Below, in pieces: positions 22,425 through 50,408 of a DNA stretch of 64,000 nucleotides. Within the stretch, counting starts at the first letter, position 1; the number at the start of each line of letters is the position of its first letter. The stretch lies in NCBI GenBank assembly GCA_964611895.1, contig CAZTDN010000018.1, forward strand, positions 6,483 to 70,482, given 5' to 3'. Under the pieces are notes generated by a model. It was given only the letters and a program-made list of their open reading frames with translations, was not told the origin of the DNA and ran no database searches. Made by a program: the position numbers and the translations under genes. This DNA is from an uncultured Pseudobdellovibrionaceae bacterium (GTDB lineage Bacteria > Bdellovibrionota > FAC87 > UBA2466).

Positions 22425-22442
22425 AAAGGTACGCGGTACCTT
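22425..22442. repeat. Single 13-bp palindromic unit GGTACGCGGTACC (22428-22440), flanked AAA/TT, abutting the stop codon of the 1093-aa gene
   Basis: Read directly from the sequence. Member of the palindrome family described in findings. Confidence 0.7.
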
Positions 22443-25400
22443 ATTGAAGCGTATGAACCAATTCTTCTAACCCCGCCCGAAGGTCGCTTTCCACCACACC
22501 CTCGGCGAGACGTTTGAGGCCGGCTCGAGCAGGCTTCGCGTTGGGACCCATCCGCTTTAGCTCAGAAAGAACCTCCAAAAACAAACCCTTTATCTGGGCA
22601 GAGGATTGCCCTTCCAAATTCACGGCAATTAGCTTTGTCAGTTCCACAGCACTTACTGCTGATAACTCCGGAGCGATTTTCCACAATACCTTAGCTCCCA
22701 GCAAACGCCGCTGCGGTTCGTCCGAACGGACCGCAGCCAAAACCTGAGGCAACGCAAAGCGCGCTTTGGGGCCTATCTCGCCTGCCAACACTAAACCCCT
22801 TTCAAAATCTTCGGGTTTTGCCGGGTGCACCAGCCGTGCTTGTAGCTGGGGGAGGATCGGCTCCCAATCAGGCTGGAGATTTTTCAAGACCTGTGTGATT
22901 GGCGAGAGCCCGCTCAGCGACTTGGCACCGAGAGCCGCTTGAACCAATGCGGGAGAGGCCGGTTGGGCCTTTTCCTTGAGGGAGTACAGCTTCCAAAGGA
23001 GTTCATTCGTATCGTGATCATTGTTTGCCAGTAACTCAGAGAGAATTCTTACGGTGCGCTCGGACAACTCAACAGAAGGACTCGCCAAAGCCCCTCGCAG
23101 TTCAGCAGGAAGATTGGACCGGGTGTTGTAGCCCTTTAGCAATTGCTTTAGCCATTGCGCCGCCTCGTCCGAACGACCTGCCCATTCCACCAGCGCCCCG
23201 GCAATAACAGAATCGTGCGCTCCGATTCCACCTCGACGTTCCACACCCGCAATGCGCTTTTCGAGCTCAACCTCCAAAAACTCGTCGTCGCTACCCGCAC
23301 GCGCGATCTCTTGTAGCGCCACAAAACCCTTGGCGCTATTGGGATTGCTTGCGAGCTCCCGCAAGTACTCGCGCGCCGGAGGCAAATCCCGCGAGAGCAG
23401 CGCAAGATAACCCAGCGATTGCGACACGGTGCCTAGTTCAACTTTGCTCGCGAATATGTCTTCGTCGGCCCGATCGACGATCTGGCGCAATGGTAAATAA
23501 GCTTCGCGATCCACTTCGCCTATCTCGAGCAGTGTCCTGACGAGTAAATGGTCTTGCGTTTTTCGAACAGCCGGGTCGCCATCCGGGCGCTTCAAAATCT
23601 GAACGAGCTCCGGCACGACTCCCTTTGCATTTGCCCCCAATTTGCCCAAGGTCTCTAGCTCGATTGAATGGTCCATAAGGGACCCTTGTCTGAGATTTTC
23701 AGCAAGCACTTTAGCAAGTGCCGGGGGATCGTTTTGGAGCTGGAGTAGCTTCAACGCTGTTTCAGGATTCTTTTTTGATTTCTCATAGACAGCGCCGCGT
23801 AAAGAATCGGGATAGTAGTTTGCGAAATCGAGAACACTCCTGAGATGAGCCAAATTCACAGGCTCACCTCCAATCTCTGCCGTCAACAACCGCTCGGCCT
23901 CCTTCACAAAAAAAGCGCCCAGCTTTTGGCGGGTGGAGTCCTCTGGAATGGCATTGGCTGCAAGCGCCCACAACGCCTTTACCACGTCCTCTCTTACGGC
24001 CGAATACTCCGGATCGTCCACGACTTTGAGCAAGTCCGGCACCAAAGCTTCAAACCCACTCCACTCAGAATATTGGATCAGCAAGAGAGCGCCATAGATC
24101 GCAGGCGCAGGCTGAGCGCGCTTGAGATCGTTGCGGATGCGCTGGACCACCCGAAGCTTAGATTGGAGCGGGGCGCGTTCAAAAGCCCCTTTCAAGTTCG
24201 TACTTTGATGCGACTCCATCACAATGGCGATTAGCGCTTTCGTGTCGCCCTGAGAGGTCTGTGGCCAAGCATTGGCGTATCTGGAATCGAGGTCCTCTTT
24301 TAGTTCGGGGTGTTTTTCTACTAGTCTCGCCATTTCTTTTTCGGTAGCCGCATCGCCCTCCCCCAAACGAGTCAATAGATTCAGCTTGTACTCTGCATCA
24401 TTGGGTGAAGGGCTTGGCTGGGCCACCACCGCTCGACGCAAGGCCTTGTGAAACGCAGGGGTGACCCCCCACTTCGACAAGATCGCTGTTCCAAATACCC
24501 GCCTCATCCCAGTGGATTGAAACGCCAGGTGCACCGCCTCCTCCACCGGAGGATCTTTCCAATAAGCTCGGCGCTGCACCTGCGATGCTACGGCTACCTG
24601 GAGATCCGGCGCGCCGCTTTGAACTGCGTAGCGAAACAACGCATTCAACGTGGACTCGGGCATCCCCACAGCCACATCCAGAAAAAAGGCACCGCCCTCA
24701 CCTCGAGGATCGTACTCAGCATCCACGGAAATCAACTCTGCGAGACGTGGAAAAAGATTCACAGGTTCGGGAACCACGGCAAACAAATGCTTGAGTGCTT
24801 TTGCCGACTCTTGGGCCTCTTCCGACTCGACTGCTGGTTTGGGGTCTGCAAAAACGCACGCATCCCACCCTTTTACTGGCTGTCCAAAACGCAGCGCGAG
24901 CCGGTAACTCTGGTACTCAGGCGATTGGAAGTCGGTCAGCGCTCGGCTCAGGTCCTGGAGAAATTTCGGTCCGAGAGCAATTTGCCGACGCAGCTGCGCG
25001 GCGACTTGGTCCGTTTGGGCCGGTGTCAGGGGCTTGCCCCCCACCACGAGCGCAGTTTTCTTGGAAAGGCTACGACGCACTCGAGCCGCCTGGGGCGACA
25101 CGACTGGCAGCGAGCGGTTCCACTCGAGCAGCGCGCTCAGGAGCATCAGGGTGGGTCCAGATAGTTTTTCGGGCTTCGCGTCTTCGAGCAACGCCTGGGC
25201 ATAAAGCCACGCAATGGCATTGCTGCCGTGATTCACTGAAATCTGGATCAGCTCTTCGAGCGCTGCAATGCCGGATGGCGTCCCCCGATAGCGGTAGGCA
25301 AACTCCGAAAGTTCTTCCTCCGAGGCTTGGGCACCCAGCCCTTTGGCTCCGTGGATCTGCTGCCAGATACTGGCCGCTTCTTCGGCAAGATCGCGGTGCA

Positions 25401-25722
25401 GGTGAGACTTCGTCTCCGAGCTCAGGCCGCGCAGTTTGGCTCGGGCCTCCCAGGAAAGGTTGCGTAGTTTGTCGCCTTCACAGATCCAAGGCGTTTTCAG
25501 ACGAGTCAATTCAAACAGGCGCTGAACTTCAAAAGACTCCAGGACAGGCTTTGCCAGCAAGCTCTCCAAAAGACGCTTTTTGTCAGAGTCGGGATCGAGA
25601 AAAAGCGACTTGGGTGCCTCGTAAAACTCCAGCGCTTTGTGGCGCTGCCTAGACACGCCATGATCGTCCGCCCACACCGATGCCGCCACCAGCCCCAGAA
25701 ATCCCCAGACAGCAATCTTCAT
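22441..25722 (-). CDS. Secreted HEAT/ARM-repeat protein (1093 aa), hypothetical
   Basis: Signal peptide MKIAVWGFLGLVAASVWA. All-alpha, Leu/Ala/Glu-rich with recurring HEAT-like units (e.g. AVRKTQDHLLVRTLLEIGE; RRLLGAKVLWKIAPE). Confidence 0.55.
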   Translation of the reverse strand: MKIAVWGFLGLVAASVWADDHGVSRQRHKALEFYEAPKSLFLDPDSDKKRLLESLLAKPVLESFEVQRLFELTRLKTPWICEGDKLRNLSWEARAKLRGLSSETKSHLHRDLAEEAASIWQQIHGAKGLGAQASEEELSEFAYRYRGTPSGIAALEELIQISVNHGSNAIAWLYAQALLEDAKPEKLSGPTLMLLSALLEWNRSLPVVSPQAARVRRSLSKKTALVVGGKPLTPAQTDQVAAQLRRQIALGPKFLQDLSRALTDFQSPEYQSYRLALRFGQPVKGWDACVFADPKPAVESEEAQESAKALKHLFAVVPEPVNLFPRLAELISVDAEYDPRGEGGAFFLDVAVGMPESTLNALFRYAVQSGAPDLQVAVASQVQRRAYWKDPPVEEAVHLAFQSTGMRRVFGTAILSKWGVTPAFHKALRRAVVAQPSPSPNDAEYKLNLLTRLGEGDAATEKEMARLVEKHPELKEDLDSRYANAWPQTSQGDTKALIAIVMESHQSTNLKGAFERAPLQSKLRVVQRIRNDLKRAQPAPAIYGALLLIQYSEWSGFEALVPDLLKVVDDPEYSAVREDVVKALWALAANAIPEDSTRQKLGAFFVKEAERLLTAEIGGEPVNLAHLRSVLDFANYYPDSLRGAVYEKSKKNPETALKLLQLQNDPPALAKVLAENLRQGSLMDHSIELETLGKLGANAKGVVPELVQILKRPDGDPAVRKTQDHLLVRTLLEIGEVDREAYLPLRQIVDRADEDIFASKVELGTVSQSLGYLALLSRDLPPAREYLRELASNPNSAKGFVALQEIARAGSDDEFLEVELEKRIAGVERRGGIGAHDSVIAGALVEWAGRSDEAAQWLKQLLKGYNTRSNLPAELRGALASPSVELSERTVRILSELLANNDHDTNELLWKLYSLKEKAQPASPALVQAALGAKSLSGLSPITQVLKNLQPDWEPILPQLQARLVHPAKPEDFERGLVLAGEIGPKARFALPQVLAAVRSDEPQRRLLGAKVLWKIAPELSAVSAVELTKLIAVNLEGQSSAQIKGLFLEVLSELKRMGPNAKPARAGLKRLAEGVVESDLRAGLEELVHTLQ

Positions 25723-25738
25723 CGCAGTTCCCCCGGTT

Positions 25739-25796
25739 GGTACGCGGTTACTTTTTCCAAAAGGTACCGCGTACCTTTCAAAAGGTACGTGGTACC
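25739..25796. promoter_or_regulatory. Array of three 13-bp palindromic units in alternating orientation within a divergent intergenic region
   Basis: GGTACGCGGTTAC(25739-51)-TTTTTCCAAAA-GGTACCGCGTACC(25763-75)-TTTCAAAA-GGTACGTGGTACC(25784-96). Lies between the start of the HEAT gene (25722, minus) and the AddB-like gene (25832, plus). Can form two alternative overlapping hairpins. Confidence 0.6.
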
Positions 25797-25831
25797 TTTA
25801 GTAGAATACCGGACGATCGCCGAAGCGTCGC

Positions 25832-27778
25832 GTGTGCAATGACAAGCACCATGCCATGCCGTATCATGCGCGCATGTCGGTTGAATGGGTGGTTTTTGAA
25901 GACGCGTCTCTCCTAGAACTGAGTCGCAAGGCGTTTCCGCACGCTTCCCCAAACTGGTGGAGCTGGGATCAGTTTCTGGACAAGTGTGGTGAGCCCCTTC
26001 TCGAAGCAACCACCCAAGCAAAGCTCGGCTTTGAGACCGCTCTCAAAGACACTCCCAGCACTATCGGAGAATGGGTCGCCACTCTGGAACAGCTGCGCGA
26101 AGCCCCACTACGCACACTCGATGATGCGGAATATTGTCTTTCGCACTTGGCACCGACCTCGAAAAACCACTTTTTGCTGCGCCTTCTCAAACTCTACTTA
26201 CAATCCCCTCTGGCACAAGGGGATCGCATGGCTCGCACCGATCGCGTGGCCCAGCATTTTTCCCAAATACCCTGGGAACACCCCCCAGAGAAAATACTCT
26301 TCCTCAAAGCACGACAACCCTGCGGTGGATTTGAGGAGTTTTATCGGCGAATTCAGGAGCACGTCCCCGCTAGTGAATACCTCGAAACATGGAACTGGAA
26401 TCCGCTTCCTCAGCCGCGTTCGCGCCGCTTTCGCCGTCCGACGGTGATCCATTCCGATGCCACTACCCTCCTCAACCGTCTGTGCGAAAAAGTCTATTCT
26501 GAAACCCGAAAGGGTCGACAGGTGCAGCTGTACGTCGAAGCAAACGCCGCAAGCCAGGCGTACTTGCAATGCCGACTCGCCCACGCCATCGGACCTGATT
26601 GGAGAAACATTTCTCTGGCGCCCTTGCACCCTCTACCCGCGACGAAAAACTGCACTTCACTGGCGTATTGTGAGCCGTTACCAGAACCCAAAGGAGTGCT
26701 GGCATTGGAGCCTGGAGAGCGGTTTCGCTTGCGTGTCGCGGGGTTTGCGATTGCCGAGGTGGAACCCCACTCACAACGCACACAGGAACGACTCCAAGCG
26801 TTCAGCGCTCCGGGGCCTGGCCATAGGTTTTTGTTTCAAGTAGGCGATAAAACTTCGCTCCACGCACCCCCTCCGGCGTCTCTGTCGCCCGGTAAACAGG
26901 AAAACACCCCCGAGTTTAGCCCCTGTGTTTTTTCAGCGACAGCACTAGAAACTTATCAGGAGTGTCCAGCGAAGTATTTTTATAGCTACGCCACACGCCT
27001 TCGCCCCCCCATCTCGCCACGCGATTCATTTGCAACTATGTTTGGCAAACTCACCCACCAAACGCTCGAACAAGCGTTTCGTGAAAATGACTGGCGCCAA
27101 ATTCAAACGCCTCTACTCCAACAGATTTTCTCTCTACACCTTGATCGCGTAGTAGCGGCAGAGGGAGCGCACGCTCTCCCAGCATGGCTCGCTACCGCAC
27201 TGGTCAAAAGATTCGAGCCCGTGGCAGCTACCATCCCTCTTATGGAAACTAAACTGAGAGATGCCTTCGGAGAACTCCGCCCTTCGCGCTTTGAGCAAGA
27301 CTTTGAAATCCCCTTTGGTGAAGTGACGCTCCAGGGGCGTATAGACCGCATCGACACCACTCCCGACGGAGCCGCGCTTATCGTCGATTATAAAACCGGA
27401 AACGTCGATTTTTCCCCCGAGCAGGTGCGCAAAGGCACCCACTTTCAGGCGTTGATCTACGCCCTGGCGGCAGAGAGCCTGTTCCGACCGGTGGGCGGGG
27501 TCCTGTTTTATGATCTGAAGCTGGGTGAAATTCGCCGCGGCTTGGCCAGGAGTAGCCAGTTCCCCAAAGCTGATAAGAATTCTCTCACCCGAGGACACTG
27601 GCTCGATGAAGAGAAATGGGAAACGACCCTTTCCGCGGGGCGCGACCACCTGAACGCGACTATCCACGCAATCCAATCCGGAGATTTTCGCCCCACTCCT
27701 TCGCCACAGACCTGTGAATACTGCGAGTACGGAACACTCTGCCGAAGCAGGGCGGGCTGGACGGGAGCCATGCCATGA
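25832..27778 (+). CDS. AddB-like PD-(D/E)XK (RecB-family) nuclease with Cas4/AddB-type 4-Cys Fe-S cluster; N-terminal ~380 aa without a Walker A
   Basis: C-terminal domain: Cys in YQECPAKYFY, nuclease motifs GRIDRID and DYKTG, HFQALIY (QxxxY), then CEYCEYGTLC (C-x2-C-x5-C). No GxxxxGK[ST] anywhere in the protein. True start may be the Met at MSVEWVV. Confidence 0.7.
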   Translation: MCNDKHHAMPYHARMSVEWVVFEDASLLELSRKAFPHASPNWWSWDQFLDKCGEPLLEATTQAKLGFETALKDTPSTIGEWVATLEQLREAPLRTLDDAEYCLSHLAPTSKNHFLLRLLKLYLQSPLAQGDRMARTDRVAQHFSQIPWEHPPEKILFLKARQPCGGFEEFYRRIQEHVPASEYLETWNWNPLPQPRSRRFRRPTVIHSDATTLLNRLCEKVYSETRKGRQVQLYVEANAASQAYLQCRLAHAIGPDWRNISLAPLHPLPATKNCTSLAYCEPLPEPKGVLALEPGERFRLRVAGFAIAEVEPHSQRTQERLQAFSAPGPGHRFLFQVGDKTSLHAPPPASLSPGKQENTPEFSPCVFSATALETYQECPAKYFYSYATRLRPPISPRDSFATMFGKLTHQTLEQAFRENDWRQIQTPLLQQIFSLHLDRVVAAEGAHALPAWLATALVKRFEPVAATIPLMETKLRDAFGELRPSRFEQDFEIPFGEVTLQGRIDRIDTTPDGAALIVDYKTGNVDFSPEQVRKGTHFQALIYALAAESLFRPVGGVLFYDLKLGEIRRGLARSSQFPKADKNSLTRGHWLDEEKWETTLSAGRDHLNATIHAIQSGDFRPTPSPQTCEYCEYGTLCRSRAGWTGAMP

Positions 27779-29748: not shown

Positions 29749-29840
29749 TACCGGCAGGAAAATCAAAGGGGAGACCTGGATTGTCCACTTGCGTGGAGAA
29801 ATACGGATCTCCCCTTCCTTCTGGGAGAAGACTTGAAAAA

Positions 29841-30620
29841 TCAAATCCGCACTGTGACTGTGCCCATGATCCGCCAAAGTTTGGATTGCATCAAACTCGC
29901 TTCTTCGAGCCCGGGTGCTGCGGTAACTTCGCCTGATGCTGATGTCGCCGAGGCGGAAAATGGCCGATTCAAAGCGGGGATCAGGTACGATCCGCGCGCC
30001 CCAATCGAAACAGTTTCGGTGATGCTCATATCGGCACCAAAGAGCAGGTTTGCACTGGCGACAAACGCGCTGTAAGTCCCAATCCCACTCGGCGTCACCC
30101 CGTACATATTGTGGTAAAGCATACCCATTACGCCGGCGCCAATGTAAGGACGCAAACGCGTCTTGGTCAGGTAGATTTTTCCGTTTGCTCCCAGGAGCAC
30201 AATGTGAAAATCCCGGTTATAAACAACGCTCGCTGTTTCCCCTGAGCCCTGGAGGTAGGAAATTTTGTAGTTGTTGTATCCACCCTCTACTTCGAACGCA
30301 AAGTAAGTCGAGACCGGGAGCTCTAGCGCAAGTCCGAGTCCGTACTGATTGCGAGTGTTTTCTTTCCAATCGCCACCAAAGATCGCTCCCCCAAACATGG
30401 GAGTGATCCCGACAGACTTGGCCGTTGAAGGTTCCACGGCCGCTACACTGGTTTGAATGTAAGCATCGGCATTAGATTCCGATGCTGTCGCTACGGCCGC
30501 CGGCTCGGTGGGGACGGCACTTTCTACTACGGACAACTCCTCTGTCACCGCCGCTTTCAGCGAGGTCGGGCAGACGACGCTGAGTAGGATCACGGACAAC
30601 GGAAATACGATTTTTCGCAT
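29841..30620 (-). CDS. Outer-membrane beta-barrel protein (OmpA-like/OmpW-size, 259 aa), hypothetical
   Basis: Signal peptide MRKIVFPLSVILLSVVCPTSLKA. Alternating hydrophobic beta-strand pattern with aromatic girdle residues. Confidence 0.45.
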   Translation of the reverse strand: MRKIVFPLSVILLSVVCPTSLKAAVTEELSVVESAVPTEPAAVATASESNADAYIQTSVAAVEPSTAKSVGITPMFGGAIFGGDWKENTRNQYGLGLALELPVSTYFAFEVEGGYNNYKISYLQGSGETASVVYNRDFHIVLLGANGKIYLTKTRLRPYIGAGVMGMLYHNMYGVTPSGIGTYSAFVASANLLFGADMSITETVSIGARGSYLIPALNRPFSASATSASGEVTAAPGLEEASLMQSKLWRIMGTVTVRI

Positions 30621-31276: not shown

Positions 31277-31298
31277 CGAACTCTCCTTTCCATTGCGG

Positions 31299-34678: not shown

Positions 34679-37600
34679 GTGTTATCCATGGACAGTTATC
34701 TCCCGCAAAATAAAATCCGAATTGTCACTGCGACCTCGTTGTTCGATGGGCACGATGCCGCCATCAACGTCATGCGTCGAATCCTTCAAGCAAGCGGCGC
34801 TGAAGTCATTCACCTAGGCCATAACCGCTCGGCAGAAGAAGTCGTCGACTGCGCTATCCAGGAAGACGCCCAAGCTATAGCCATGACCTCCTATCAGGGC
34901 GGGCATATGGAATATTTCAAATACCAATACGATCTGCTCAAACAAAAAGGGTTTGAGCATATCCGCCTTTTTGGGGGCGGCGGCGGAGTCATCCTCCCCA
35001 GTGAGATTCAAGAACTCAAAAAGTATGGCATAGCCCATATCTACTCACCCGATGACGGCCGATCGATGGGGCTGCAGGGAATGATCAATGATTTGCTTCA
35101 AAAAAGTGATTTTGCCACGGTGAAAAAAGCCCCAGCCCTCGACTCCCTTTCGTTTTCCAGCCCCGGGAAGCTGGCACAGGCCATAACCGCAGCGGAAAAC
35201 GGAATGTACGCCCCTGGAGAAGTGGAAAAATGGGCCCAGAAACGAGCGTCCAAATGCCCAGTCCTGGGGGTGACCGGGACCGGTGGTGCGGGAAAGTCGT
35301 CGCTGGTCGACGAACTCATTCGCCGTTTCTTGCGAGATCAATCTGAAAGCCGAGTCGCGGTCCTCGCGGTCGACCCATCCAAACGCAAAACCGGCGGGGC
35401 ACTGCTGGGGGATCGGATCCGAATGAATGCGGTATACCACCCGCGGGCGTATATGCGGTCCCTGGCCACGCGCCAAAGCCACCTCTCACTGAGCACTCAT
35501 GTTCACGAAGCTGTCCTTCTTCTCAAAGGCGCCGGTTACGACCTCGTGGTCTTAGAAACCTCGGGCATTGGTCAATCGGACACCGAGATTGTGGACCATT
35601 GCGATTACTCACTCTATGTCATGACCCCTGAATATGGAGCTGCCACCCAACTCGAAAAAATCGACATGATCGATTTTGCAGATGCGATCGCACTGAACAA
35701 GTTTGACCGGCGAGGGGCGCAGGATGCGTTGCGTGATGTACGCAAGCAGTACAAGCGGGCGCGTAAGCTTTTTGAAGTGGAAGACTCCGCGGTCCCCGTT
35801 GTGGGGACGATTGCGTCTCAGTTTAATGACGGCGGAATGAACCGTTTCTACAGCCTGGTCATGGAAGGGCTCCGCAAGAAAACAGGCGCCCCTTTTCAAC
35901 GGAAAGAGAACGCACTGGTTCTCGAACCAGAAAAATCTACCATCATCCCCCCTGAACGCACACGCTACCTTTCGGAAATTTCGTCGAAAGTGCGTGAGCA
36001 CAAAGCCTGGATACAATCTCAGGTAGATGCGGCGAACGCATGTTTTGGTTTACACGCGGCCATACAAACTGCTGGAGCAGCGGAAAAACCCACACTGGAG
36101 GCCCTACTTGACGAACGCAAAACCCGTCTAGCGCCCGAGAGTCGGAAGATTATTGAAACCTGGGCGCAAAAGCGCAAAGCCTTTGACGCAGATGACTTTT
36201 CGTTTGTGGTTCGCGAGCAGCAAGTCAAACTGCCGGCCTATTCTGAGTCCCTTAGCCATACCCGCATTCCCAAAGTGGCGCTTCCTAAGTTTGAAGCTTG
36301 GGGGGAAATACTGCGGTGGTCCCTTGAAGAAAACACACCCGGAGAGTTCCCCTATACCGCGGGCGTTTTCCCGCTAAAACGCGAAAATGAAGACCCCACG
36401 CGGATGTTTGCCGGTGAAGGCGGCCCGGAACAAACGAATAAACGCTTTCACTATGTTTCGATGGACTTACCGGCGCGTCGTCTATCGACTGCATTTGACT
36501 CGGTGACTCTCTACGGCGAGGACCCCGGTATTCGCCCTGATATTTTTGGAAAAATCGGCAATGCCGGCGTTTCCATCTGCTGCTTGGACGACGCCAAAAA
36601 GTTATATTCAGGTTTTGATCTCTGTGATCCATCTACTTCGGTCTCCATGACCATTAACGGACCAGCACCCATGGTACTTGGATTTTTCCTCAACGCAGCC
36701 GTGGACCAGGCGTGTGAAAAATACATTGTGACCAATGGATTGCAGGACGAAATAGAAAAAAAGAAAAAGGCCTATTTTGAAAAACGGGGCGTATCCGCGC
36801 CCCGCTACCGAGGAGACCTTCCTCAAGGCAACCAGGGTTTGGGCCTGATGTTGCTCGGAATAACGGGCGATGAAGTCTTGCCAAAAGAGACGTACGAAAA
36901 GATCAAAGCCGAAACTCTGCGCCAAGTGCGCGGCACAGTTCAAGCGGATATTCTAAAGGAGGATCAGGCCCAGAATACCTGTATTTTCTCGACTGAATTT
37001 GCCTTGCGCATGATGGGAGATGTTCAAAAGTATTTTATCGATCACCAGGTGCGGAACTTTTACTCCGTTTCGATTTCCGGATACCACATTGCCGAAGCAG
37101 GTGCGAACCCCATTACGCAGCTGGCGTTTACTCTCGCCAATGGATTTTCCTACGTGGAGTATTATCGATCGCGGGGCATGGCGGTGGACGATTTTGCGCC
37201 GAACCTGTCTTTCTTTTTTTCAAATGGTGTGGATCCAGAATATGCAGTGATAGGACGAGTCGCGCGGCGCATTTGGTCCAGAGCGATGAAGTATGTTTAC
37301 GGTGCCAACGCGCGCAGCCAAAAGCTCAAATACCATATCCAAACTTCGGGGCGCTCGCTGCACGCGCAGGAAATCGATTTCAATGATATCCGGACCACCT
37401 TGCAAGCGGTCTACGCCATTTTTGACAACTGCAACTCCTTGCATACTAACGCCTATGACGAGGCGATCACGACTCCGACGGAAGAATCGGTGCGCAGGGC
37501 CATGGCTATCCAGATGATCATCAACCATGAGTTGGGCCTGTCCAAGAACCAAAACCCACTTCAGGGCTCCTTCATTATCGAACGCCTCACGGACTTGGTG

Positions 37601-38029
37601 GAAGAAGCTGTTTTGACCGAGTTCGATCGCCTCACCGAGCGCGGTGGGGTGTTGGGTGCAATGGAAACCATGTACCAGCGAGGCAAAATTCAAGAAGAGT
37701 CGCTCTACTACGAAACGCTCAAACACGAGGGCAAATACCCCATTATCGGCGTCAATACGTTTCTTTCTTCGAAGGGTTCACCTACGGTCTTGCCAAGAGA
37801 AGTCATCCGCAGCACGGACACTCAAAAACAGGCGCAGATCGAGACCGTGCGACAAGTCCAGGAGCGCGGTGGCGCAGCAGCGGCACAAGCTCTGACCGCA
37901 CTGCAAGCTGCCGCTACTGAGAATCGCAATACTTTCGAAGCGATCATGGAAGCCAGCAAGGTCTGCACTCTAGGACAAATGACCCGGACCCTTTATGCAG
38001 TGGGCGGCGAGTACCGCCGTAATATGTAA
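34679..38029 (+). CDS. icmF: Fused isobutyryl-CoA mutase IcmF (B12-binding domain + MeaB-like G-protein + mutase catalytic domain)
   Basis: 1116 aa. N-terminal B12-binding DGHD..G motif, P-loop [12 protein letters not shown] (MeaB-like), large C-terminal methylmalonyl-CoA-mutase-family domain. Confidence 0.85.
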
Positions 38030-38065
38030 GGTACGCGGTTCCTTTTTAAAAAGTAACCGCGTACC
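38030..38065. repeat. 36-bp palindrome GGTACGCGGTTCC-TTTTTAAAAA-GTAACCGCGTACC (two units; imperfect TTCC/GTAA) starting 1 nt after the icmF stop
   Basis: Read directly from the sequence. Confidence 0.75.
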
Positions 38066-38113: not shown

Positions 38114-39373
38114 GTGGGTATGTTTAGGGGTGTTGTTTTATTTTTGATTTGGGGAGCGAGCGCCCTGCTCGCCCAACCCGAATTTCAAAGCCGGCGTCTG
38201 AGTTCCACGAGTTGCCGGGACTGGCTGCTACTTCTCGATCTCGACGGAAAAATCGAAACAGCTCTCCACAAACTTCAACCCGATCCGAACAAAGAAAAGC
38301 CAATGTCCGATGCCGAGCGAATCTACTGGACCAAAGAATTGGCTAGTCTCCGGCTAGAGCGAACAGCCCTGGCGTTACAGTTTCAGCCCGAAGAGACTGC
38401 CCAAGCCCCGGCCTTTGAGCCGGGAACTAGCATCGAATTAGAACCCGTGCCAGTCATCAGCCTGCGGCATTTCTACACAACACGCCCGCAATCAGATGGC
38501 GGAAGCATGCTGGCTCGGTACTCACCCGATGGGAAGCGTTGCTTGGTGGTTTCTGCAGATGCCAAGGTGGTTTACGATTGGGATCTCAATCCCCCTGGAG
38601 AGGATGAAGTCCTCTATTATCGACGGGAATTCCCAGACGGCGTGCAGGACGCTGCTTACACCTGGGATAACCACCTGACGGTCTTGGACCGCAGAGGCGA
38701 GCTGACCGTGTATGCACCCCATGCAAGCAAACCGTATGGCGATTGGAAGGCCAACTCTTTTTATGCGTTAGCGTTTTCGAAGAACAAACTCTTCACTCTG
38801 GGCCAACGCCTGCACCTGACGCGTGATTTTTCTTTCAGCGTGGATAAGAATGCGCCAAATCCGTTTCGGAATTTCGGAGTGCGCAACGCGATTTCGGAAG
38901 ACGCAAAGGTGGGGGCGATTTCCAACGGTCCGCACTTGCATATATTGGACTTGGAAAATGGAGCTACACTCAAGTCCTTTAAGGACACGGCTAGCGGGTT
39001 TCTTACCTTTGGTTTTCAACCCCAAAGCCACCGCCTGGTCGCGCTGACCGCAAAAGGCGAGATCCTGCTCTGGGACCCGAAAGAGCTACGAGTCATCACA
39101 CGTTTTCAACTGCAGGGATTGTTGCCCACTTCGCTTGCGATCGATCGCCATGGCAGGGCCTATATTGGCGGCGCAATTTATGGAGGGCTGGAGGGCGCCA
39201 TTGCCATTGTAGACTTGAATACAGGACAAGAACTCGATCGTTTCCAAACAGACGACAAGGGCGGCATTGGCGGACTCTCTCTTTCTCCCGATGAACAAAC
39301 GATCCTGACCTCCCAAAAACACGATCACATGCTTTATTTTTATTTGAATCCACTAGCGGAGGATTTGGATTGA
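38114..39373 (+). CDS. Secreted beta-propeller (WD40/YVTN-like) protein, hypothetical
   Basis: Signal peptide. Repeated strand-rich units with WD-like dipeptides (YDWDL, LLWDP). Confidence 0.45.
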   Translation: MGMFRGVVLFLIWGASALLAQPEFQSRRLSSTSCRDWLLLLDLDGKIETALHKLQPDPNKEKPMSDAERIYWTKELASLRLERTALALQFQPEETAQAPAFEPGTSIELEPVPVISLRHFYTTRPQSDGGSMLARYSPDGKRCLVVSADAKVVYDWDLNPPGEDEVLYYRREFPDGVQDAAYTWDNHLTVLDRRGELTVYAPHASKPYGDWKANSFYALAFSKNKLFTLGQRLHLTRDFSFSVDKNAPNPFRNFGVRNAISEDAKVGAISNGPHLHILDLENGATLKSFKDTASGFLTFGFQPQSHRLVALTAKGEILLWDPKELRVITRFQLQGLLPTSLAIDRHGRAYIGGAIYGGLEGAIAIVDLNTGQELDRFQTDDKGGIGGLSLSPDEQTILTSQKHDHMLYFYLNPLAEDLD

Positions 39374-39891
39374 ACGCCGTTGCTCTTTTTTTGATGCTGG
39401 TAGCAGCAACTGGGGCCCAGTCGAACGATGAGTTTCCGGCTGTCCGGGATGGCAATCTCAGTCGTATTTCTGCAAACTCTAAATTACTGGACAAGCCCGT
39501 GGAAGATGCGGCCTTTACCCTCACCGTCTCCCGCGCCTACAGCGACACGGTCCGCCAAATTCAGCTTAGCCGTGATTTAATCCATCAGCGACGCCTGCGC
39601 CTCGCAGCACTAGACTCCAGCGGCGAACTCAACACCCTGTTTGATCGGCTTACGGACAAGAAGATCACCCCCAAACAGCTCAAAGAAACTCAAAGCCGGA
39701 TTCAGGAAAAAGCAAAAACCCTGGGCAAGGAAGCCCAGCCCGCGTTGGATGAAATGAATCTGCTGGAATCCCAGCTAATACAACTCGAAGAGCAAATCAC
39801 TCGCAAGGATTCGGGCCTGGAATTCTATCGTCGCAAAGTCAGGAACCAGTTCTATCAAGACAGGAGCGCCAAGCCTCCTGGGTCGCATTAG
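39370..39891 (+). CDS. Secreted coiled-coil protein (173 aa), hypothetical
   Basis: TTG start overlapping the upstream stop (TTGA). Signal peptide MNAVALFLMLVAATGA. Q/E/K/L-rich heptads. Confidence 0.4.
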   Translation: MNAVALFLMLVAATGAQSNDEFPAVRDGNLSRISANSKLLDKPVEDAAFTLTVSRAYSDTVRQIQLSRDLIHQRRLRLAALDSSGELNTLFDRLTDKKITPKQLKETQSRIQEKAKTLGKEAQPALDEMNLLESQLIQLEEQITRKDSGLEFYRRKVRNQFYQDRSAKPPGSH

Positions 39892-39899: not shown

Positions 39900-39937
39900 G
39901 GTACGCGCTACCTTTGCGCGCAAAGGTAGCGCGTACC
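39900..39937. repeat. Perfect 38-bp palindrome GGTACGCGCTACCTTTGCG/CGCAAAGGTAGCGCGTACC lying exactly between two convergent stop codons (39889-91 and 39937-39)
   Basis: Read directly. This variant of the family carries symmetric (compensatory) substitutions that preserve perfect self-complementarity. Confidence 0.8.
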
Positions 39938-41121: not shown

Positions 41122-41161
41122 ATTCACGTTTTGTAACATCTTCGAGTATTCTGCGCCAATC

Positions 41162-42523
41162 ATGATGGATGCTTCGACGACCGTAACCTATCCCCAAGGC
41201 CATGTGCTCTTGCGCCACTTGCAGCGAACCTTTCCGGTGATTTCTCACGGAGAGGGAGTTTACCTGTTTGATAAATCGGGAAAAAAATACTTTGATGCCG
41301 CCGGCGGCGCACTCGTCGCAAGTATTGGACACGGGGTCCGCGAGATCGGCCAAGCCATTGCTGAACAACTGGCCAAAGTCGGGTACGTGAACGGCACCCA
41401 GTTCACTTCGCCCGTTATGGAAGAATTCGCGGACTGCTTGGCAGCAAAGTCCCAGAAAATCGGGTTGGACCGGGTGGCAATTCTCGGCTCGGGATCCGAG
41501 GCCATGGAAGCCGCGATCAAGTTCGCTCGTCAACTGTGGGTGGAAAGAGGCGAACCGCAGCGTTCTACTTTTATCGCGCGAGTACCCGGCTACCACGGAA
41601 ATACTTTCTATGCGCTTTCCGCCTCGGGAAGGCCTCATTACAAGAAACTCTTTGGCCCCTTGCTCTCACGAGTACTGACGGTGCCCGCTGCGTATGGATA
41701 CCGCTGTCCCGTAGACTACGAAACGCAAGGTGCGGAATACTACGCGCAAGAACTCGAAAAATGTATTCTGACCGAAGGCCCCCAAAAAGTGGCTGGGTTT
41801 TTGGTGGAACCGGTCAGTGGTTCGTCGACGGGGGGCTGGCCGCCACCCCCCGGATACTTCGAAAAAATATCGGCAGTTTGTCGCAAGTACGGAGTGCTGA
41901 TTCTAGCGGACGAAGTGTTGTGCGGGGCTGGTCGAACCGGGATGTACTTCGCCAGCGAGCATTTTGGGCTACAGCCGGATATCGCCGTGCTGGGCAAAGG
42001 CATCAACGGAGGATACCTGCCAGTAAGCGCAGTGCTGGTGCGCCAAGCCGATACGGATCTCATGAAAAAAGGTACCGGGTACTTTTTGCACGCGCAGACC
42101 TATTTGCAATCTCCCTGCATGGCCGCCGCAGCGCTCGCCGTATTGAATTACCTCGACAAAAACCGTGTCCTGGAAAACGCACAAACTGTCGGAGCTTACT
42201 GGCAAGATCTCCTCCGCAAAGAAATTGCCCCGCTCGAGCATGTGGGCTGTGTCACCGGAATCGGAATGCTTGGCGGCGTGGAGTTTGTGCAGGACAAAAG
42301 CTCCAAACTAGCGTTTGACCGAAGCCAGAAGATAGTGGAAGGTTTTGTGTCTAACTGCTTGGATAACGGCCTGACGGTCTGGCCCAATGTCGGCCATGCC
42401 GACGGAGTCAACGGAGACCTCATCGTCATGGGGCCCCCCTTGAACATGACCCGCTCCCAAGCCGAGGAACTCGTCGCCAAACTCAAAGCGAGTGTGAGTG
42501 GCTTTTTCTCAAAAAGGGGATAA
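41162..42523 (+). CDS. Class-III (omega) aminotransferase, PLP-dependent
   Basis: Start at ATG 41162/41165 (track ORF 40889 overlaps the thiolase). ADEVLCGAGRTG; PLP lysine in AVLGKGINGG. Confidence 0.8.
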   Translation: MMDASTTVTYPQGHVLLRHLQRTFPVISHGEGVYLFDKSGKKYFDAAGGALVASIGHGVREIGQAIAEQLAKVGYVNGTQFTSPVMEEFADCLAAKSQKIGLDRVAILGSGSEAMEAAIKFARQLWVERGEPQRSTFIARVPGYHGNTFYALSASGRPHYKKLFGPLLSRVLTVPAAYGYRCPVDYETQGAEYYAQELEKCILTEGPQKVAGFLVEPVSGSSTGGWPPPPGYFEKISAVCRKYGVLILADEVLCGAGRTGMYFASEHFGLQPDIAVLGKGINGGYLPVSAVLVRQADTDLMKKGTGYFLHAQTYLQSPCMAAAALAVLNYLDKNRVLENAQTVGAYWQDLLRKEIAPLEHVGCVTGIGMLGGVEFVQDKSSKLAFDRSQKIVEGFVSNCLDNGLTVWPNVGHADGVNGDLIVMGPPLNMTRSQAEELVAKLKASVSGFFSKRG

Positions 42524-44088: not shown

Positions 44089-44099
44089 ATGGAGCTCAT

Positions 44100-45428: not shown

Positions 45429-46360
45429 TCCGTCGAGCCCCGAAGCTGGGTCGCGACAAGCGTCGATCGATGAAAGAAGCGATTGCCGACTCCGTTCGGC
45501 CGGGCGACACGTTGCTCATTGAGGGGTTCACTCACCTCATTTGTTTTGCGGCGGGACATGAGATCATCCGCCAAGGCATCGGAGACTTGACGGCTGTTCG
45601 GCTGACGCCTGACCTTGTTTACGATCAGATTATGGAGGCGGGCTTAGTAAAAAAACTCGTCTTTAGCTGGGCCGGAAATCCTGGAGTCGGCTCGCTGCAC
45701 GCCCTACGTCGCCGCAGCCAAAAAGGGGCCGCTGGCCGAATCGAGCTAGAAGAATATTCGCATTTTGGAATGGTTGCCCGATTGCAGGCGGGCAGCAGTG
45801 GCCTGCCCTTCTGGCCTTTGGACAATTACCAGGGCAGCGACATTGCCGGAGCCAACGCCCGGATTCGCCAGGTAGAGTGCCCTTACACTGGTCGCCGGTT
45901 TGCTACTGTGCCAGCACTCAACCCCGACGTCGCTGTCGTGCATTGCCAGCGCAGCGACAAAGAGGGCAACGCGCAAGTTTGGGGCCTTCTGGGCACCCAA
46001 AAAGAAGCGGCTTTTGCTTCTAAACGCGTGATCGTGGTTGCCGAGGAAATCGTCGATACTTCTCTTATTCGAAAAGACCCCAACCGAACTCTCATCCCTG
46101 GTCTATTAGTCGACCATGTGGTGCATGAGCCCTGGGGATGCCACCCGAGTTATGTTCAGGGACATTACGATCGCGATAATGATTTTTACGTAAAGTGGGA
46201 AGAAATTTCGCGTGAGGTGCAACCGTATCAGGACTACTTGGCCGAGTTTGTTCATGGAGTCGCTGATCGCAAAGCCTACCTGAAAAAAATGGGCACGGGC
46301 CTGATCGACCGGCTCAAGGCCAAACCGCGCAAGTGCGAAGGGGTGGACTATGGGTACTAA
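45404..46360 (+). CDS. CoA-transferase subunit A, glutaconate-CoA-transferase (GctA)-like, ~320-aa class
   Basis: SMKEAIADSVRPGDTLLIEGFTHLICFAAGHEIIRQGIGDLT matches the GctA-type N-terminus by family recollection. Alternative start at Met 45470 avoids the 25-nt overlap with the upstream gene. Confidence 0.7.
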   Translation: MPDQTREIVRRAPKLGRDKRRSMKEAIADSVRPGDTLLIEGFTHLICFAAGHEIIRQGIGDLTAVRLTPDLVYDQIMEAGLVKKLVFSWAGNPGVGSLHALRRRSQKGAAGRIELEEYSHFGMVARLQAGSSGLPFWPLDNYQGSDIAGANARIRQVECPYTGRRFATVPALNPDVAVVHCQRSDKEGNAQVWGLLGTQKEAAFASKRVIVVAEEIVDTSLIRKDPNRTLIPGLLVDHVVHEPWGCHPSYVQGHYDRDNDFYVKWEEISREVQPYQDYLAEFVHGVADRKAYLKKMGTGLIDRLKAKPRKCEGVDYGY

Positions 46361-47138
46361 CCTCACTGCCACCCCGTCCGAGCGCATGGCAGTCCGAGCT
46401 GCCGCCGAGTTGCACGACCGCGAGGTCGTATTTGTAGGAATTGGGCTGCCCAATCTGGCGTGCAATCTGGCGCGTGCTACCCACGCTCCTGACTTGTTTA
46501 TGATTTACGAGTCAGGTGCCGTTGGAACATTGCCCGATCGGCTGCCAGTATCCATTGGCGATCCGACTCTGGTCACAGACTCCCTGGCTATTGTGAGCCA
46601 GAGCGATATTTTTCAGCTCTTCCTGCAAGGGGGACTGATCGAAGTCGGATTTTTGGGCGGGGCGCAGGTAGACCGTTACGGCAATCTGAATACGACGGTC
46701 ATCGGAGACTATGACAACCCCAAAGTGCGCCTACCCGGTAGCGGAGGCGCTTGTGAAATAGCGGGGCATTCACAACGGTTATTGATCATGATGCGAATGA
46801 GTCCGCGCAGTTTCGTGGAAACAGTAGATTTTGTCACAAGCCCAGGGCAGCGGTTTCATAGTAAACGAAAATCTGATCAAGAAGGAAAACCTCGAACGGA
46901 TTTTCACCTACCAGGCGGCGGGCCACTTACCGTGATCACCGACTTGGGGGTTTGTCAGTTTGAAGGCGATGAAATGGTGCTGACTGAGACTTACCAAGGG
47001 GTAACGCCAGAACAAGTGCACGCGGCCTGTGGGTGGAAAATGAAAATCGCCTCGCAGCTGCGCACCGCTCCCGAGCCTACTGCCGCTGAACTCAAGCTTC
47101 TGCGCGAAAAACTCGACCCCCAGAAGCTCTATCTTTAA
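46350..47138 (+). CDS. CoA-transferase subunit B (GctB-like), catalytic glutamate subunit
   Basis: 262 aa. ESG motif in DLFMIYESGAVG (catalytic Glu of family I CoA-transferase beta subunits). 11-nt overlap with subunit A. Confidence 0.75.
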   Translation: MGTNLTATPSERMAVRAAAELHDREVVFVGIGLPNLACNLARATHAPDLFMIYESGAVGTLPDRLPVSIGDPTLVTDSLAIVSQSDIFQLFLQGGLIEVGFLGGAQVDRYGNLNTTVIGDYDNPKVRLPGSGGACEIAGHSQRLLIMMRMSPRSFVETVDFVTSPGQRFHSKRKSDQEGKPRTDFHLPGGGPLTVITDLGVCQFEGDEMVLTETYQGVTPEQVHAACGWKMKIASQLRTAPEPTAAELKLLREKLDPQKLYL

Positions 47139-47140
47139 CC

Positions 47141-47178
47141 GGTACGCGGTACCTTTTTCACAAAAGGTACCGCGTACC
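47141..47178. repeat. 38-bp palindrome GGTACGCGGTACC-TTTTTCACAAAA-GGTACCGCGTACC starting 3 nt after the CoA-transferase B stop; followed by a degenerate extra GCGTACC
   Basis: Read directly from the sequence. Confidence 0.8.
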
Positions 47179-47296
47179 GCGGGCGTACCGCCGGTGTATC
47201 GCGAGATCTAGACAAGAGTTAAGATGACTTTCTGCGTCACGCGATTCACCGATTGCCGTGCCGCATTAACTCCACGAGTGTCTGCTCTCAACACTT

Positions 47297-48571
47297 GTGG
47301 GAGAGTTTGTGAGAAGTTTTGGGCGGATCCTTTTTCTTGTTTTCTTTCTTTTACCCCTAGCAGGCCAGTCCCAAGACATCGTTTGGAACGAGGCCGGTCG
47401 GCCGCCCATCCGCCCACCCCTCGAGCTACCGAGTTGCCGCACCTTGCTTGCGCCCCATGAAATCCCCCAGGGCTCAAGCTCTCCTTCGGTCAACCAATCC
47501 GTCGGAGTAGTGCTCGCCGAAAGCATCCGGGTAGAAGACTTTAGCGCCCAGCTCGACAAACTGGTCGCCGAACGCGGACCTGAGGCGGTTATCGGTGGAC
47601 GCATCTATGTCACAGGCGTGCCCATGGGCAAAGAGAAGATCACACGCTTTCAGTTTGAAAAGGCACTCAAAGCCCGTGGATTTTACGACGTTAAAGTTAC
47701 CGTCATGTCGATTCCCACGGCAAAGTTCAAAGGCTTTTCTCTGCAAACCGCGCGCGCCGTCCTGGAACGTGTGAAATATTGGTTTCCCTCAATGGACAGA
47801 GATTACCAAACACCCCTCAGAGGCGAAGTCACCTCAGGCATCACTTCAGACATTTTGGTCGAGGCGCCCAACCTGGTCTTCCTGTTCAACTCTCTGGATA
47901 AAACTGCAGACTTTGCGCTCACCTCAGGTATCCACGCCTCGCTGATCTTGGCCTACAATGTCTGGGCCAAAGCGATAACCAACTGGGTTTTGCGCCCAGG
48001 GGGCAGTAAGGTCGCTGAGTTTCTAAAAAGCGCAGCGTTGTCGTTTCCGTTTGTGTTGAACTACGCCGTCTTCGGCCACTACTCTGATATTCACAATTTC
48101 TACTTACAAAACGGGTGGGAAGCGACTCTAGCTCGCTTTCCTGCCGAACTGGCCAATTTTGGCGCTACACAAGGGCTCACGACTTTTTTACAAGTGATGT
48201 TTTACCGAATGGTCATGGTCGAAGGACTGGGCCAATGGCAAAACAGCAAAAGCGGTGTGGAAGACTCCGAAATCGTCCGAACCGTCGCCAACGTGAACCG
48301 TGCGCCCATATTAGTGCTCGACGCGATCGCACTCTTTTACGCTAGCACCAATGCCTGGAGCCTATGGCATTATGGCGCGTTTGATCTCAACGCGGGGCAT
48401 ATCGCTCTAGCGGCGCTCGCCCTAGCGGGAAAGGCGGCCTTTTGGGCCAACCCCAACTTCCTCGACCCCACGCTACACGTCGGGAAATGGCTCGTGGGAC
48501 TGGGTCGGTATTTCAAATCTCTGGCGGTTGTTTCAGAAGAAGAAAACCCACCGCCCCCGCCAACCGAGTAA
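47297..48571 (+). CDS. Hypothetical protein (424 aa): secreted N-terminal domain plus polytopic hydrophobic C-terminal half, Pro5 tail
   Basis: Signal peptide ILFLVFFLLPLAGQSQ. At least five hydrophobic helices in the C-terminal half. Ends EENPPPPPTE. Confidence 0.45.
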   Translation: MGEFVRSFGRILFLVFFLLPLAGQSQDIVWNEAGRPPIRPPLELPSCRTLLAPHEIPQGSSSPSVNQSVGVVLAESIRVEDFSAQLDKLVAERGPEAVIGGRIYVTGVPMGKEKITRFQFEKALKARGFYDVKVTVMSIPTAKFKGFSLQTARAVLERVKYWFPSMDRDYQTPLRGEVTSGITSDILVEAPNLVFLFNSLDKTADFALTSGIHASLILAYNVWAKAITNWVLRPGGSKVAEFLKSAALSFPFVLNYAVFGHYSDIHNFYLQNGWEATLARFPAELANFGATQGLTTFLQVMFYRMVMVEGLGQWQNSKSGVEDSEIVRTVANVNRAPILVLDAIALFYASTNAWSLWHYGAFDLNAGHIALAALALAGKAAFWANPNFLDPTLHVGKWLVGLGRYFKSLAVVSEEENPPPPPTE

Positions 48572-48630
48572 CGCTTGGCACCATCGGCTGTGACGTGAGA
48601 TGATACTAGCTCCAACCAAGAGGAGCTCCC

Positions 48631-50370
48631 ATGGCCGATACATCCGACAAAAATGCCAGTTTCATGCGTTCACTTTGTCTAGGCGAAATCCGCGAAGACA
48701 TGATCTTCCCTTTTCCCCAGATCAAAGCAGAAGAAAAAGAAACCCTCAAAGCGACTTTTGATGCGTTCAGCACCTGGCTACGCGGTCGCGAGAAAGAGTT
48801 CCGGGAATGGGACGTCAAAGGCCATTTACCAGCCGAGTTTTTACAGCAGATGCGTGAGTTTGGTCTGTTCGGTTTTATTATCCCAGAAAAACACGGCGGC
48901 ATGGGATTTTCGACGTCGGCTTATTCGCGCACGATTCAAGAACTCTCTCGATTTGAATCTTCGGTTGCCCTCACCGCAGGAGCACATAGCTCCATCGGAA
49001 TGCGTGGCCTGTTGATTTTTGGTACCGAGGCCCAAAAAGACAAATACCTTCCCAAACTCGCCACCGGGGAAATGATTGCCGCTTTTTGCCTGACCGAACC
49101 CGGATCGGGGTCCGATGCGGCATCTATCAAGACCACTGCCGTGCGCAAAGGGGATAAGTGGGTCATCAATGGTGAGAAACTTTGGATCACCAATGGCGGC
49201 ATAGCGGACTTTTTTACGGTCTTTGCTCGCACGGATACCAAAGAGGGCAAGATGACAGCTTTCATTGTCACCCGCGACATGAAAGGCGTCTCCAATGGCC
49301 CCCACGAAGATAAGATGGGCATCCGCGCTAGTTCGACGACCACCATTCTATTGGACAATGTTGAAGTAGGAGACGAACACGTTCTAGACGAAGTGGGCAA
49401 AGGGTTTAAGGTTGCAATGCGTATTCTCAATGCTGGCCGCACAGGTCTGGGCGGAGGATCGGTCGGAGCGATGAAAGAAGCTATCGCTCATTGCACCAAA
49501 CAAGCCAAACAGCGCGCGCAGTTTGGCAAACCCATCGCTGAGTTTGGATTGGTGAAACAAAAAATCGGCCACATGGTCGTTGAGACATTTGCTACGGAAT
49601 CTACCGTATCGATGGTGAGCGGCCTGGTGGATCAAGGCTATGACGATTACGCAGTCGAAGCGGCGATCAGCAAAGTATTTGCCACCGAGTGCCTCTGGCG
49701 CACGGTCGACGAGGCCCTGCAGATTGCGGGGGGGAATGGTTTCATGCGCGAGTTTCCCTACGAGCGCATGATGCGGGATTGCCGCATTAACCGCATTTTT
49801 GAAGGAACGAATGAAATCCTTCGCCTGTTTATCGCTCTTACTGGCATGAATGACGTCGGCAGTGAGCTTAAGGAACTCAGCTCATCTTTGGGGAACGTTT
49901 TTTCGGATCCCATCAAAGGGTTCGGAGTGCTATCTGACTATGCTCGCAAGCGAGTTTCATACGCAACCGGAGTGGGAAAGTCTGAGCTCACCAAATCGCA
50001 CCCCGATCTCAAAAACGCGGCGATCGTCTTTAATGACGGCGCACAGCGCCTGGGAACTTTTGCGGACCGGCTATTGCGTAAGCACGGCAAAAAAATCGTC
50101 GATAGCCAATTCGCCACCCGGCGGCTGGCTGATGTGATGATCGATCTCTTTGCGCTGGGCTGTACGATTAGCCGAGTGACTTCGATGATCGAAAGCAAAG
50201 GATCTGCTGCTTGCTCCAAGGAAAAAGAAATCCTCACCGTATTCTCGGGCCAGTGCCGTCGCCGTATCAACGGCAATATCGGCAAGATCGATGAAAATGA
50301 CGATGAACTCATCAAATCTCTCGCAGACGATGCGGTGGAAGCCGAGTCCTATCGCTGGGATACTATCTAG
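48631..50370 (+). CDS. Acyl-CoA dehydrogenase, long form with ~170-aa C-terminal extension (VLCAD/ACAD9-like architecture)
   Basis: 579 aa. ACAD core with the C-terminal signature GGNGFMREFPYERMMRDCRINRIFEGTNEI, followed by an extra C-terminal domain. Confidence 0.8.
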   Translation: MADTSDKNASFMRSLCLGEIREDMIFPFPQIKAEEKETLKATFDAFSTWLRGREKEFREWDVKGHLPAEFLQQMREFGLFGFIIPEKHGGMGFSTSAYSRTIQELSRFESSVALTAGAHSSIGMRGLLIFGTEAQKDKYLPKLATGEMIAAFCLTEPGSGSDAASIKTTAVRKGDKWVINGEKLWITNGGIADFFTVFARTDTKEGKMTAFIVTRDMKGVSNGPHEDKMGIRASSTTTILLDNVEVGDEHVLDEVGKGFKVAMRILNAGRTGLGGGSVGAMKEAIAHCTKQAKQRAQFGKPIAEFGLVKQKIGHMVVETFATESTVSMVSGLVDQGYDDYAVEAAISKVFATECLWRTVDEALQIAGGNGFMREFPYERMMRDCRINRIFEGTNEILRLFIALTGMNDVGSELKELSSSLGNVFSDPIKGFGVLSDYARKRVSYATGVGKSELTKSHPDLKNAAIVFNDGAQRLGTFADRLLRKHGKKIVDSQFATRRLADVMIDLFALGCTISRVTSMIESKGSAACSKEKEILTVFSGQCRRRINGNIGKIDENDDELIKSLADDAVEAESYRWDTI

Positions 50371-50372
50371 CC

Positions 50373-50408
50373 GGTACGCGGTACCTTTTTAAAAAGGTAC
50401 CGCGTACC
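50373..50408. repeat. Canonical perfect 36-bp palindrome GGTACGCGGTACC-TTTTTAAAAA-GGTACCGCGTACC starting 3 nt after the ACAD stop
   Basis: Read directly from the sequence. Confidence 0.85.

Follow-up and report, generated by a model that had tools for sequence, protein, structure and literature searches.

A probable REP-like family of inverted repeat units placed at gene ends in an uncultured bacterium

We analyzed a 64-kb stretch of DNA (contig CAZTDN010000018.1, hereafter the window) that carries six sites of a short repeat, assembled from an ~18-nt unit that is most often paired with an inverted copy of itself to form a hairpin. The repeat recurs on many contigs and is extragenic. We consider it probable that the sites represent a lineage-specific family of repetitive extragenic palindromic (REP)-like elements of the untagged type, hosted by an uncultured bacterium that is probably related to the Bdellovibrionota. 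A REP-like family is new for this lineage, although its kind is already known.

The abundance of the repeat in the window far exceeds chance. Allowing at most one mismatch, the 13-mer GGTACGCGGTACC matched the window 10 times (0.04 expected from dinucleotide-preserving shuffles) and a degenerate pattern of the paired form, or dyad, matched 5 times (0.00 expected). An inverted-repeat scan and a reading of the six sites resolved five dyads and one single unit (Table 1). Using a degenerate pattern that matches all five window dyads, we recovered from a metagenome collection 23 further loci on ~16 other contigs, none of which overlaps the window. These loci bear out the original prediction of an unannotated and dispersed sequence family rather than a local duplication. 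All 23 came from two very large metagenome assemblies, JACCDG01 and JACCDT01, certain loci being represented by identical copies in each (L007 = L015, L017 = L023). The window proteins are also recorded in one of the two assemblies, and the window region is 99.99% identical in a second assembly. In total, we count ~30 distinct sites on ~17 contigs in ~276 kb of host DNA; the loci other than the window were chosen for carrying a copy, and the unbiased window gives a density of ~1 site per 10 kb.

Searches in other sequence collections returned no further members. The canonical dyad had no comparable match in 185,579 species genomes (one per species), the sole reference-genome match, in Streptomyces lichenis, being an unrelated GC-rich hairpin that we rejected. 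Because the scan gave only this match, the host genome is not among the species representatives. Viral contigs and plasmids did not match the family, and no Rfam family matched the whole window at gathering thresholds or the 47000-50600 region at E values up to 1. No tRNA or tmRNA was present, and a literature search with the 13-mers found no paper, the 10-mer matches listed being in papers about unrelated subjects.

To describe the anatomy of the element we used 74 units, and built the alignment and covariance model from 27 dyads. The unit reads M-GGTACGCG-(GTTAC, GTACC or CTACC)-TTTT, and the three arm variants account for 33 (GTTAC), 28 (GTACC) and 10 (CTACC) of the units. The base outside the head is A or C in 66 of the 74, with no further conservation. 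In a dyad, two inverted units face each other with heads outward and T/A tracts inward, giving a hairpin of 17-18 bp around an AT-rich, variable centre of 2-6 nt. Across the 17-bp stem of the 27 dyads, 96.7% of the stem cells are paired and G-U pairs are absent. Four stem pairs change on both sides (GC/CG, UA/AU, AU/CG and UA/GC), and the covariation score (0.126) exceeds the value of 0.055 obtained in column shuffles (0 of 500 shuffles reached 0.126) and the scores of slid partners (at most 0.016). Complementarity of the arms has thus been kept through changes on both sides, as had been proposed. The three arm variants co-vary between arms, and the seemingly compensatory stem states correspond to three subfamilies rather than to many independent events; in 5 of the 27 dyads, the arms of different subfamilies are paired as hybrids. 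The substitutions in the copy at 39900-39937, once read as a compensatory event private to that site, are those of the CTACC/GGTAG subfamily, which recurs in L006, L014, L020 and L022. The proposed "palindrome of palindromes" fared no better. Only units with the GTACC arm (28 of 74) contain the inner palindrome of the 13-mer (GGTAC-GCG-GTACC), which the GTTAC arm (33 of 74) breaks; because it is limited to one of three subfamilies, this feature is incidental. Seven of the 27 dyads are perfectly palindromic from end to end, and palindromic centres occur in 9 of 27 (3.7 expected, p 0.005).

Units also occur singly or in tandem clusters (+---, +++-), and decayed copies are present. The clusters seen in the loci are built on a dyad; within the window, five sites are dyads or clusters and one is a singleton. 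The +--- cluster at L017 2463-2550 (= L023 7745-7832) repeats every 26 nt exactly, 9 nt of flanking sequence (TGACCCTCC) being part of each period, and a +++- cluster occupies L006 10284-10363. At L008 610-727, units are nested as ++--, a degenerate outer pair (GTACGCGGTTATCA / TGATAACCGCGTGC) surrounding a full dyad. Further, L005 560-800 and L011 1059-1330 are one locus, ~93% identical, in two versions that differ by an extra 22-nt unit (TTTCAAAAAGTAACCGCGTACC) and a 1-nt change in the loop. The number of units is therefore polymorphic.

The position of the elements relative to genes is strongly biased. Genes were called as simple longest open reading frames (ORFs), with manual corrections for the thiolase gene and feoA. 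Of the 30 distinct sites, 11 fall in convergent spacers, 10 in unidirectional and ~5 in divergent ones, the rest being at locus ends. A stop codon lies within 14 nt of 21 of the 30 sites, in agreement with the REP-like bias towards 3' ends that had been suggested for the window. Each of the 10 unidirectional sites lies close to the upstream stop (0-14 nt), with the next start 46-251 nt away (Fisher p 9.6e-7). The family over-uses convergent spacers (11 of 26 sites versus 19% of the spacer length, p 0.005), and in several convergent pairs the element is nearly the whole spacer, with 6-17 nt left over. The commonest layout is a stop codon, two nucleotides and then GGTAC. Outside the clusters, only 3 isolated 8-mer cores were found in ~212 kb (~6 expected from length alone), a number at or below chance, and single units show no excess in coding DNA. 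GTAC and GGTACC are neither depleted nor enriched outside the elements, and a restriction-site effect (GGTACC is the KpnI site) was rejected on this ground. Four of the six window sites fall within one metabolic cluster (icmF, thiolase, CoA-transferase and acyl-CoA dehydrogenase), and the genes that flank the other copies are unrelated (HSP20, GGDEF, TonB and secreted hypothetical proteins).

Table 1. The six sites of the repeat family in the window, with their form, predicted RNA folding, covariance model score and gene context
Positions	Form	Folding energy (kcal/mol)	Model score (bits)	Nearest gene end or start	Other distances
22428-22440	Single unit GGTACGCGGTACC, within a 17-nt palindrome AAGGTACGCGGTACCTT at 22426-22442 (AA/TT flanks included)	-7.6 (z -0.08), no better than shuffles	13.5 (weak)	Immediately adjacent to the TAA stop (22441-22443) of the 1093-aa gene (minus strand)	
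25739-25796	Three-unit cluster (+ - +): imperfect dyad 25739-25775 (GTTAC arm vs GGTACC arm) and third unit GGTACGTGGTACC at 25784-25796		58	Between the divergent starts at 25722 (minus strand) and 25832 (plus strand); not near a stop	16 nt to the ATG of the minus-strand 1093-aa gene; 35-56 nt to the start at 25832
38030-38065	Dyad with one mismatched pair (GGTTCC vs GTAACC)	-26.1 (z -5.8)	62	0 nt after the icmF TAA	Next start 48 nt beyond its end
39900-39937	Perfect 38-bp palindrome, CTACC subfamily, GCGCGC centre; 40 bp with A/T flanks	-43.1 and -36.4		Between convergent stops; 8 nt past the stop of 39370-39891	Shares 1 nt with the thiolase TAG (the final C, at 39937)
47141-47178	Dyad with a non-palindromic 4-nt loop between perfect 18-nt arms (47140-47157 / 47162-47179)	-38.1		2 nt after the CoA-transferase B TAA	Next ORF 118 nt past its end
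50373-50408	Canonical perfect 36-bp palindrome GGTACGCGGTACCTTTTTAAAAAGGTACCGCGTACC; 38 bp with C/G flanks	-33.2 (z -6.5)		2 nt after the acyl-CoA dehydrogenase TAG	~53 nt before the probable feoA start

As Table 1 shows, the original prediction had located all six sites correctly and had overstated their uniformity. Rather than six perfect palindromes of 36-38 bp, the sites include a lone 13-mer (22428-22440), and only those at 39900-39937 and 50373-50408 are perfect throughout. Similarly, five sites are 0-8 nt from a stop, within the 0-12 nt proposed for all six, and the cluster at 25739-25796 is between divergent starts. Folded as RNA, the 36-38 bp dyads reach -26 to -43 kcal/mol whichever strand is used (z -5 to -7.4), and the single unit does not share this stability. 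Four family sites supply 6 of the 8 exceptional 3'-end hairpins among the 46 gene ends of the window. The bases that follow the stem at 38030, 39900, 47141 and 50373 (TTTCGA, TAATTC, GCGGGC and GAAATA, respectively) do not form a U-tract, which agrees with the earlier view that these are not classical intrinsic terminators. A unit-like sequence at 42068-42090 (AAAAAGGTACCGGGTACTTTTT), inside an aminotransferase coding region, has A and T tracts and differs from the 13-mer at 2 positions; the similarity is probably due to chance.

Comparisons with relatives indicate that the family is confined to a narrow lineage and turns over rapidly. The closest named matches of SecA (window 54889-57420) are from metagenome-assembled genomes of Bdellovibrionales, Bdellovibrionota and Deltaproteobacteria (73-75% identity), and those of IcmF (34679-38029) are from Bacteroidota (69-70%). 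The two taxonomic signals disagree, which may reflect horizontal transfer of icmF or uneven naming of database entries. Metagenomic relatives that share the gene order are closer (75-78% identity for IcmF and 82-88% for SecA). Conservation in orthologous intergenic regions, raised in the original prediction as a check, did not hold: the orthologous spacers of L026, L028, L029, L030, L031 and L032 are empty of the family. The site orthologous to 38030-38065, for example, lacks the element in L026, L029 and L030, and in L029 the icmF and thiolase genes are 3 nt apart. L029 (lineage of GCA_964519985.1) is the only relative with a diverged version of the family, represented by two members that the covariance model detected at 9900-9953 and 21431-21481 (E values of 2.8e-6 and 6e-4). 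Both members keep A-GGTAC-NNN-CTWCC-TTTT...AAAA, with CCA/CTG replacing the GCG of the window family and loops of 10-13 nt. They occupy non-orthologous positions, both between divergent genes, and one is 47 nt upstream of icmF. In the closest relative, the slot that corresponds to window 47141-47178 holds an unrelated sequence, a 62-bp perfect palindrome (TCTCCCAAAAGGGGTCAATCCACTTTCAGGATCC and its complement; L030 22503-22564 = L031 822-883) located 12 nt after the CoA-transferase B stop. Most orthologous gene ends in the relatives have no hairpin at all.

The features of the family match those of untagged REP-like stem-loop families (PMC3733652, PMC2267715), which likewise consist of a short palindromic unit scattered outside genes and specific to a lineage. 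REP families are found mainly between convergent and unidirectional ORFs, at less than 20 bp from ORF 3' ends and at variable distances from downstream ORFs (PMC3733652), and the sites described here favour the same two spacer types and, within them, positions close to where the upstream ORF ends. The known families also show subfamilies whose stem residues change in a complementary way and tandem clusters that take in flanking DNA, and some are untagged (PMC3733652). Complementary-stem subfamilies, singletons, inverted dimers and tandem clusters with flanking DNA all occur in our set, which differs from untagged REP-like families in its AT-rich centre (T4-5 / A4-5) and in its constant GGTAC(GCG) head, which is paired instead of serving as an unpaired tag. 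The resemblance extends to GTAG-tagged REPs and to REP doublets forming hairpins (REPINs), in which an inverted doublet, folded as one hairpin, is the dominant form (PMC2817692, PMC3116915). As in REPINs, unit numbers vary between strains and sequence turns over fast with the architecture kept, L029 having retained the head and T-tract and changed the middle. Unlike in REPINs, no more than 8-14 nt separate the two units, and single units are not consistently palindromic.

Several observations weigh against a REP-like assignment. In REPIN-RAYT systems, the cognate REP-associated tyrosine transposase (RAYT) is a single-copy gene flanked by the repeats. We found neither a RAYT nor any other transposase, whether next to the copies or in the remainder of the ~276 kb of host sequence that we read. 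Pfam and NCBIfam searches of the flanking ORFs found no mobilizing enzyme (20 flanking ORFs scanned with Pfam had no PF01797 match), six-frame ORFs of the same ~276 kb gave no credible match to the HUH...Y...NP motif, and small ORFs bracketed by copies, read by eye, did not reveal a mobilizing enzyme either. The unpaired GTAG or CGTC of the tagged REP superfamilies is absent, and the dyad stem (17-18 bp) is longer than that of catalogued REPs (6-13 bp). Because no filled and empty pair of one site was seen within the species, mobility rests on the comparison with relatives at 75-88% protein identity. The ~30 sites were counted in ~276 kb of host DNA; REP-like repeats usually number more than 100 per genome. 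Of the 17 stem pairs, 13 were fixed in the search pattern, which makes their invariance in L003-L025 partly a product of construction; the co-varying positions were left free on each arm. Since the stems have no G-U pairs, RNA is not favoured over DNA as the level at which the structure acts. The ~5 sites between divergent genes adjoin gene starts, not ends, and a hairpin 0-4 nt after a stop would be covered by the terminating ribosome.

If the sites do form a REP-like family, the copies most likely arose by recent proliferation of a non-autonomous hairpin element within the genome and were then duplicated locally in tandem and decayed. Copying would depend on an enzyme that recognizes the hairpin via the constant GGTAC head, and single-strand transposases of the HUH/RAYT type provide a precedent. 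Because most copies lie in the 3' untranslated tails of genes, they would be transcribed as a very stable terminal hairpin. REP hairpins of Escherichia coli block 3'-to-5' exonucleases and can attenuate read-through. By analogy, the terminal hairpins of this bacterium may protect transcripts from exonucleases or attenuate read-through, and at convergent gene pairs they would work in either direction. The maintenance of arm complementarity suggests that the hairpin is copied, useful, or both, and template-switch correction of quasi-palindromes may help keep the symmetry.

Two other readings are unlikely, yet deserve consideration. The first, which we regard as an outside possibility, invokes a hairpin-copying system other than RAYT/REPIN, characterized by a paired constant GGTAC head, an AT-rich centre and a position 0-4 nt from a native stop. 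Placement would then result from insertion targeted to gene ends or from use by the host as U-tract-independent, bidirectional 3'-end signals in a lineage with few canonical terminators. Were this the case, ribosomes would not interfere with the stop-adjacent hairpins, implying weak coupling of transcription and translation. The second holds that the hairpins are primarily host signals, that is, bidirectional terminators or 3'-end protectors that work without a U-tract, and that their similarity stems from concerted evolution or recruitment. We give it a similarly small chance. Placement is terminator-like, including the narrow residual spacers between convergent stops, and canonical terminators are scarce: there is one such hairpin in the window (21323-21347), and terminator-like matches do not exceed shuffles (27 versus 26.5; 37 versus 29.5). 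The unrelated 62-bp palindrome in the closest relative, in the same slot after CoA-transferase B, also speaks for this reading. Against it, most copies are without a U-tract, ~5 sites and both L029 members are in divergent promoter regions, the orthologous gene ends of relatives mostly have no hairpin, and the tandem arrays and hybrid arms resemble the dynamics of repeats rather than optimized signals.

Resemblance to intrinsic terminators is limited to a strong hairpin just downstream of stops that is symmetrical at convergent pairs; the stem is much longer than in those terminators, the sequence is common to the sites and some copies are in promoter regions. The classical intrinsic terminator was ruled out for want of a U-tract after the stem in most copies. 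We also rejected a mini-terminator composed of the 13-mer hairpin and the central T5, one per strand: a terminator scanner detects only the inner 13-mer and the central T5, and the 5-bp inner stem is destroyed in the GTTAC variant (33 of 74 units). Separately, a canonical bidirectional terminator (A9-GGGAGGGCGCCTG-loop-CAGGCGCCCCCCTC-T-rich) lies at 21310-21360, between the convergent genes 19932-21314 and 21369-22322, and is the only convincing classical one at 20-60 kb.

A signal that acts at the level of DNA, such as a cruciform, a site for a nucleoid protein or gyrase, or an uptake sequence, seems to us improbable, and distinctly more so than the host-signal reading. It draws on the perfect palindromes and palindromic centres counted above and on the lack of G-U pairs in the stems. 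In addition, an AT-rich centre flanked by GC-rich arms favours cruciform extrusion. Gyrase and IHF bind to E. coli REPs (PMC2817692). However, single units are not in excess in coding DNA, and GTAC and GGTACC are at the expected frequency outside the elements. The pairs of short words inverted at gene ends do resemble the paired DNA uptake sequences (DUS of Neisseria, uptake signal sequences of Pasteurellaceae) that double as terminators, but uptake sequences are also abundant singly inside genes and normally common to a family of related species, whereas our repeat shows neither property and is absent from close relatives.

Even less probable is the proposal, put forward in the original prediction, that the dyads bind a dimeric protein. 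They would then be operators, for example for a regulator of the acyl-CoA catabolic cluster. Dyad symmetry and the concentration of four of the six window sites in one metabolic cluster would suit an operator, but the sites follow stops, in one case within a convergent gene pair, the genes beside other copies are of unrelated function, the arms co-vary, which half-sites do not need, and the same gene cluster is conserved in relatives without the sites. We therefore set the proposal aside. An assembly artefact or a purely local duplication can be dismissed almost entirely: the six sites do cluster within 22-50 kb of the window, with nothing further, but the copies have unrelated, unique flanks on ~17 contigs in two independent assemblies, some loci are identical in both and the window region itself is nearly identical in the second. 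Among mobile elements, a miniature inverted-repeat transposable element was rejected, as the whole element is an inverted repeat and no direct repeats flank the copies, and so was an integron attC site, the neighbours being housekeeping genes in conserved synteny.

Three ORFs that adjoin elements (22441-25722, 39370-39891 and 47297-48571, encoding 1093, 173 and 424 aa) matched nothing in Pfam or NCBIfam, and tblastn did not detect them in the syntenic loci of relatives, which carry an amine oxidase gene or nothing in place of the 424-aa ORF. Family units flank the 1093-aa ORF on both sides. Judged from its sequence, its product appears to have an N-terminal signal peptide and a helical-repeat composition; it looks like a secreted protein and not like a DNA enzyme. 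Downstream of 50373-50408, a probable small feoA (GTG near 50462, within 50440-50700) precedes feoB and aligns with the annotated FeoA of L031. This gene is absent from the 150-aa ORF list, and its inclusion shortens the distance from the element to the next start to the value given in Table 1.

The repeat provides a clean and easily recognized REP-like family in an uncultured lineage where none had been described. For annotation, its identification spares the sites from being labelled as operators, small-RNA genes or CRISPR remnants, none of which they are. The tight spacing to stops, the three co-varying subfamilies and the diverged sister family are useful features, none of them unprecedented. 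Thus, the family offers a convenient system for the questions that REP elements raise: how they are copied, why they are found at gene 3' ends and what effect they have on transcripts.

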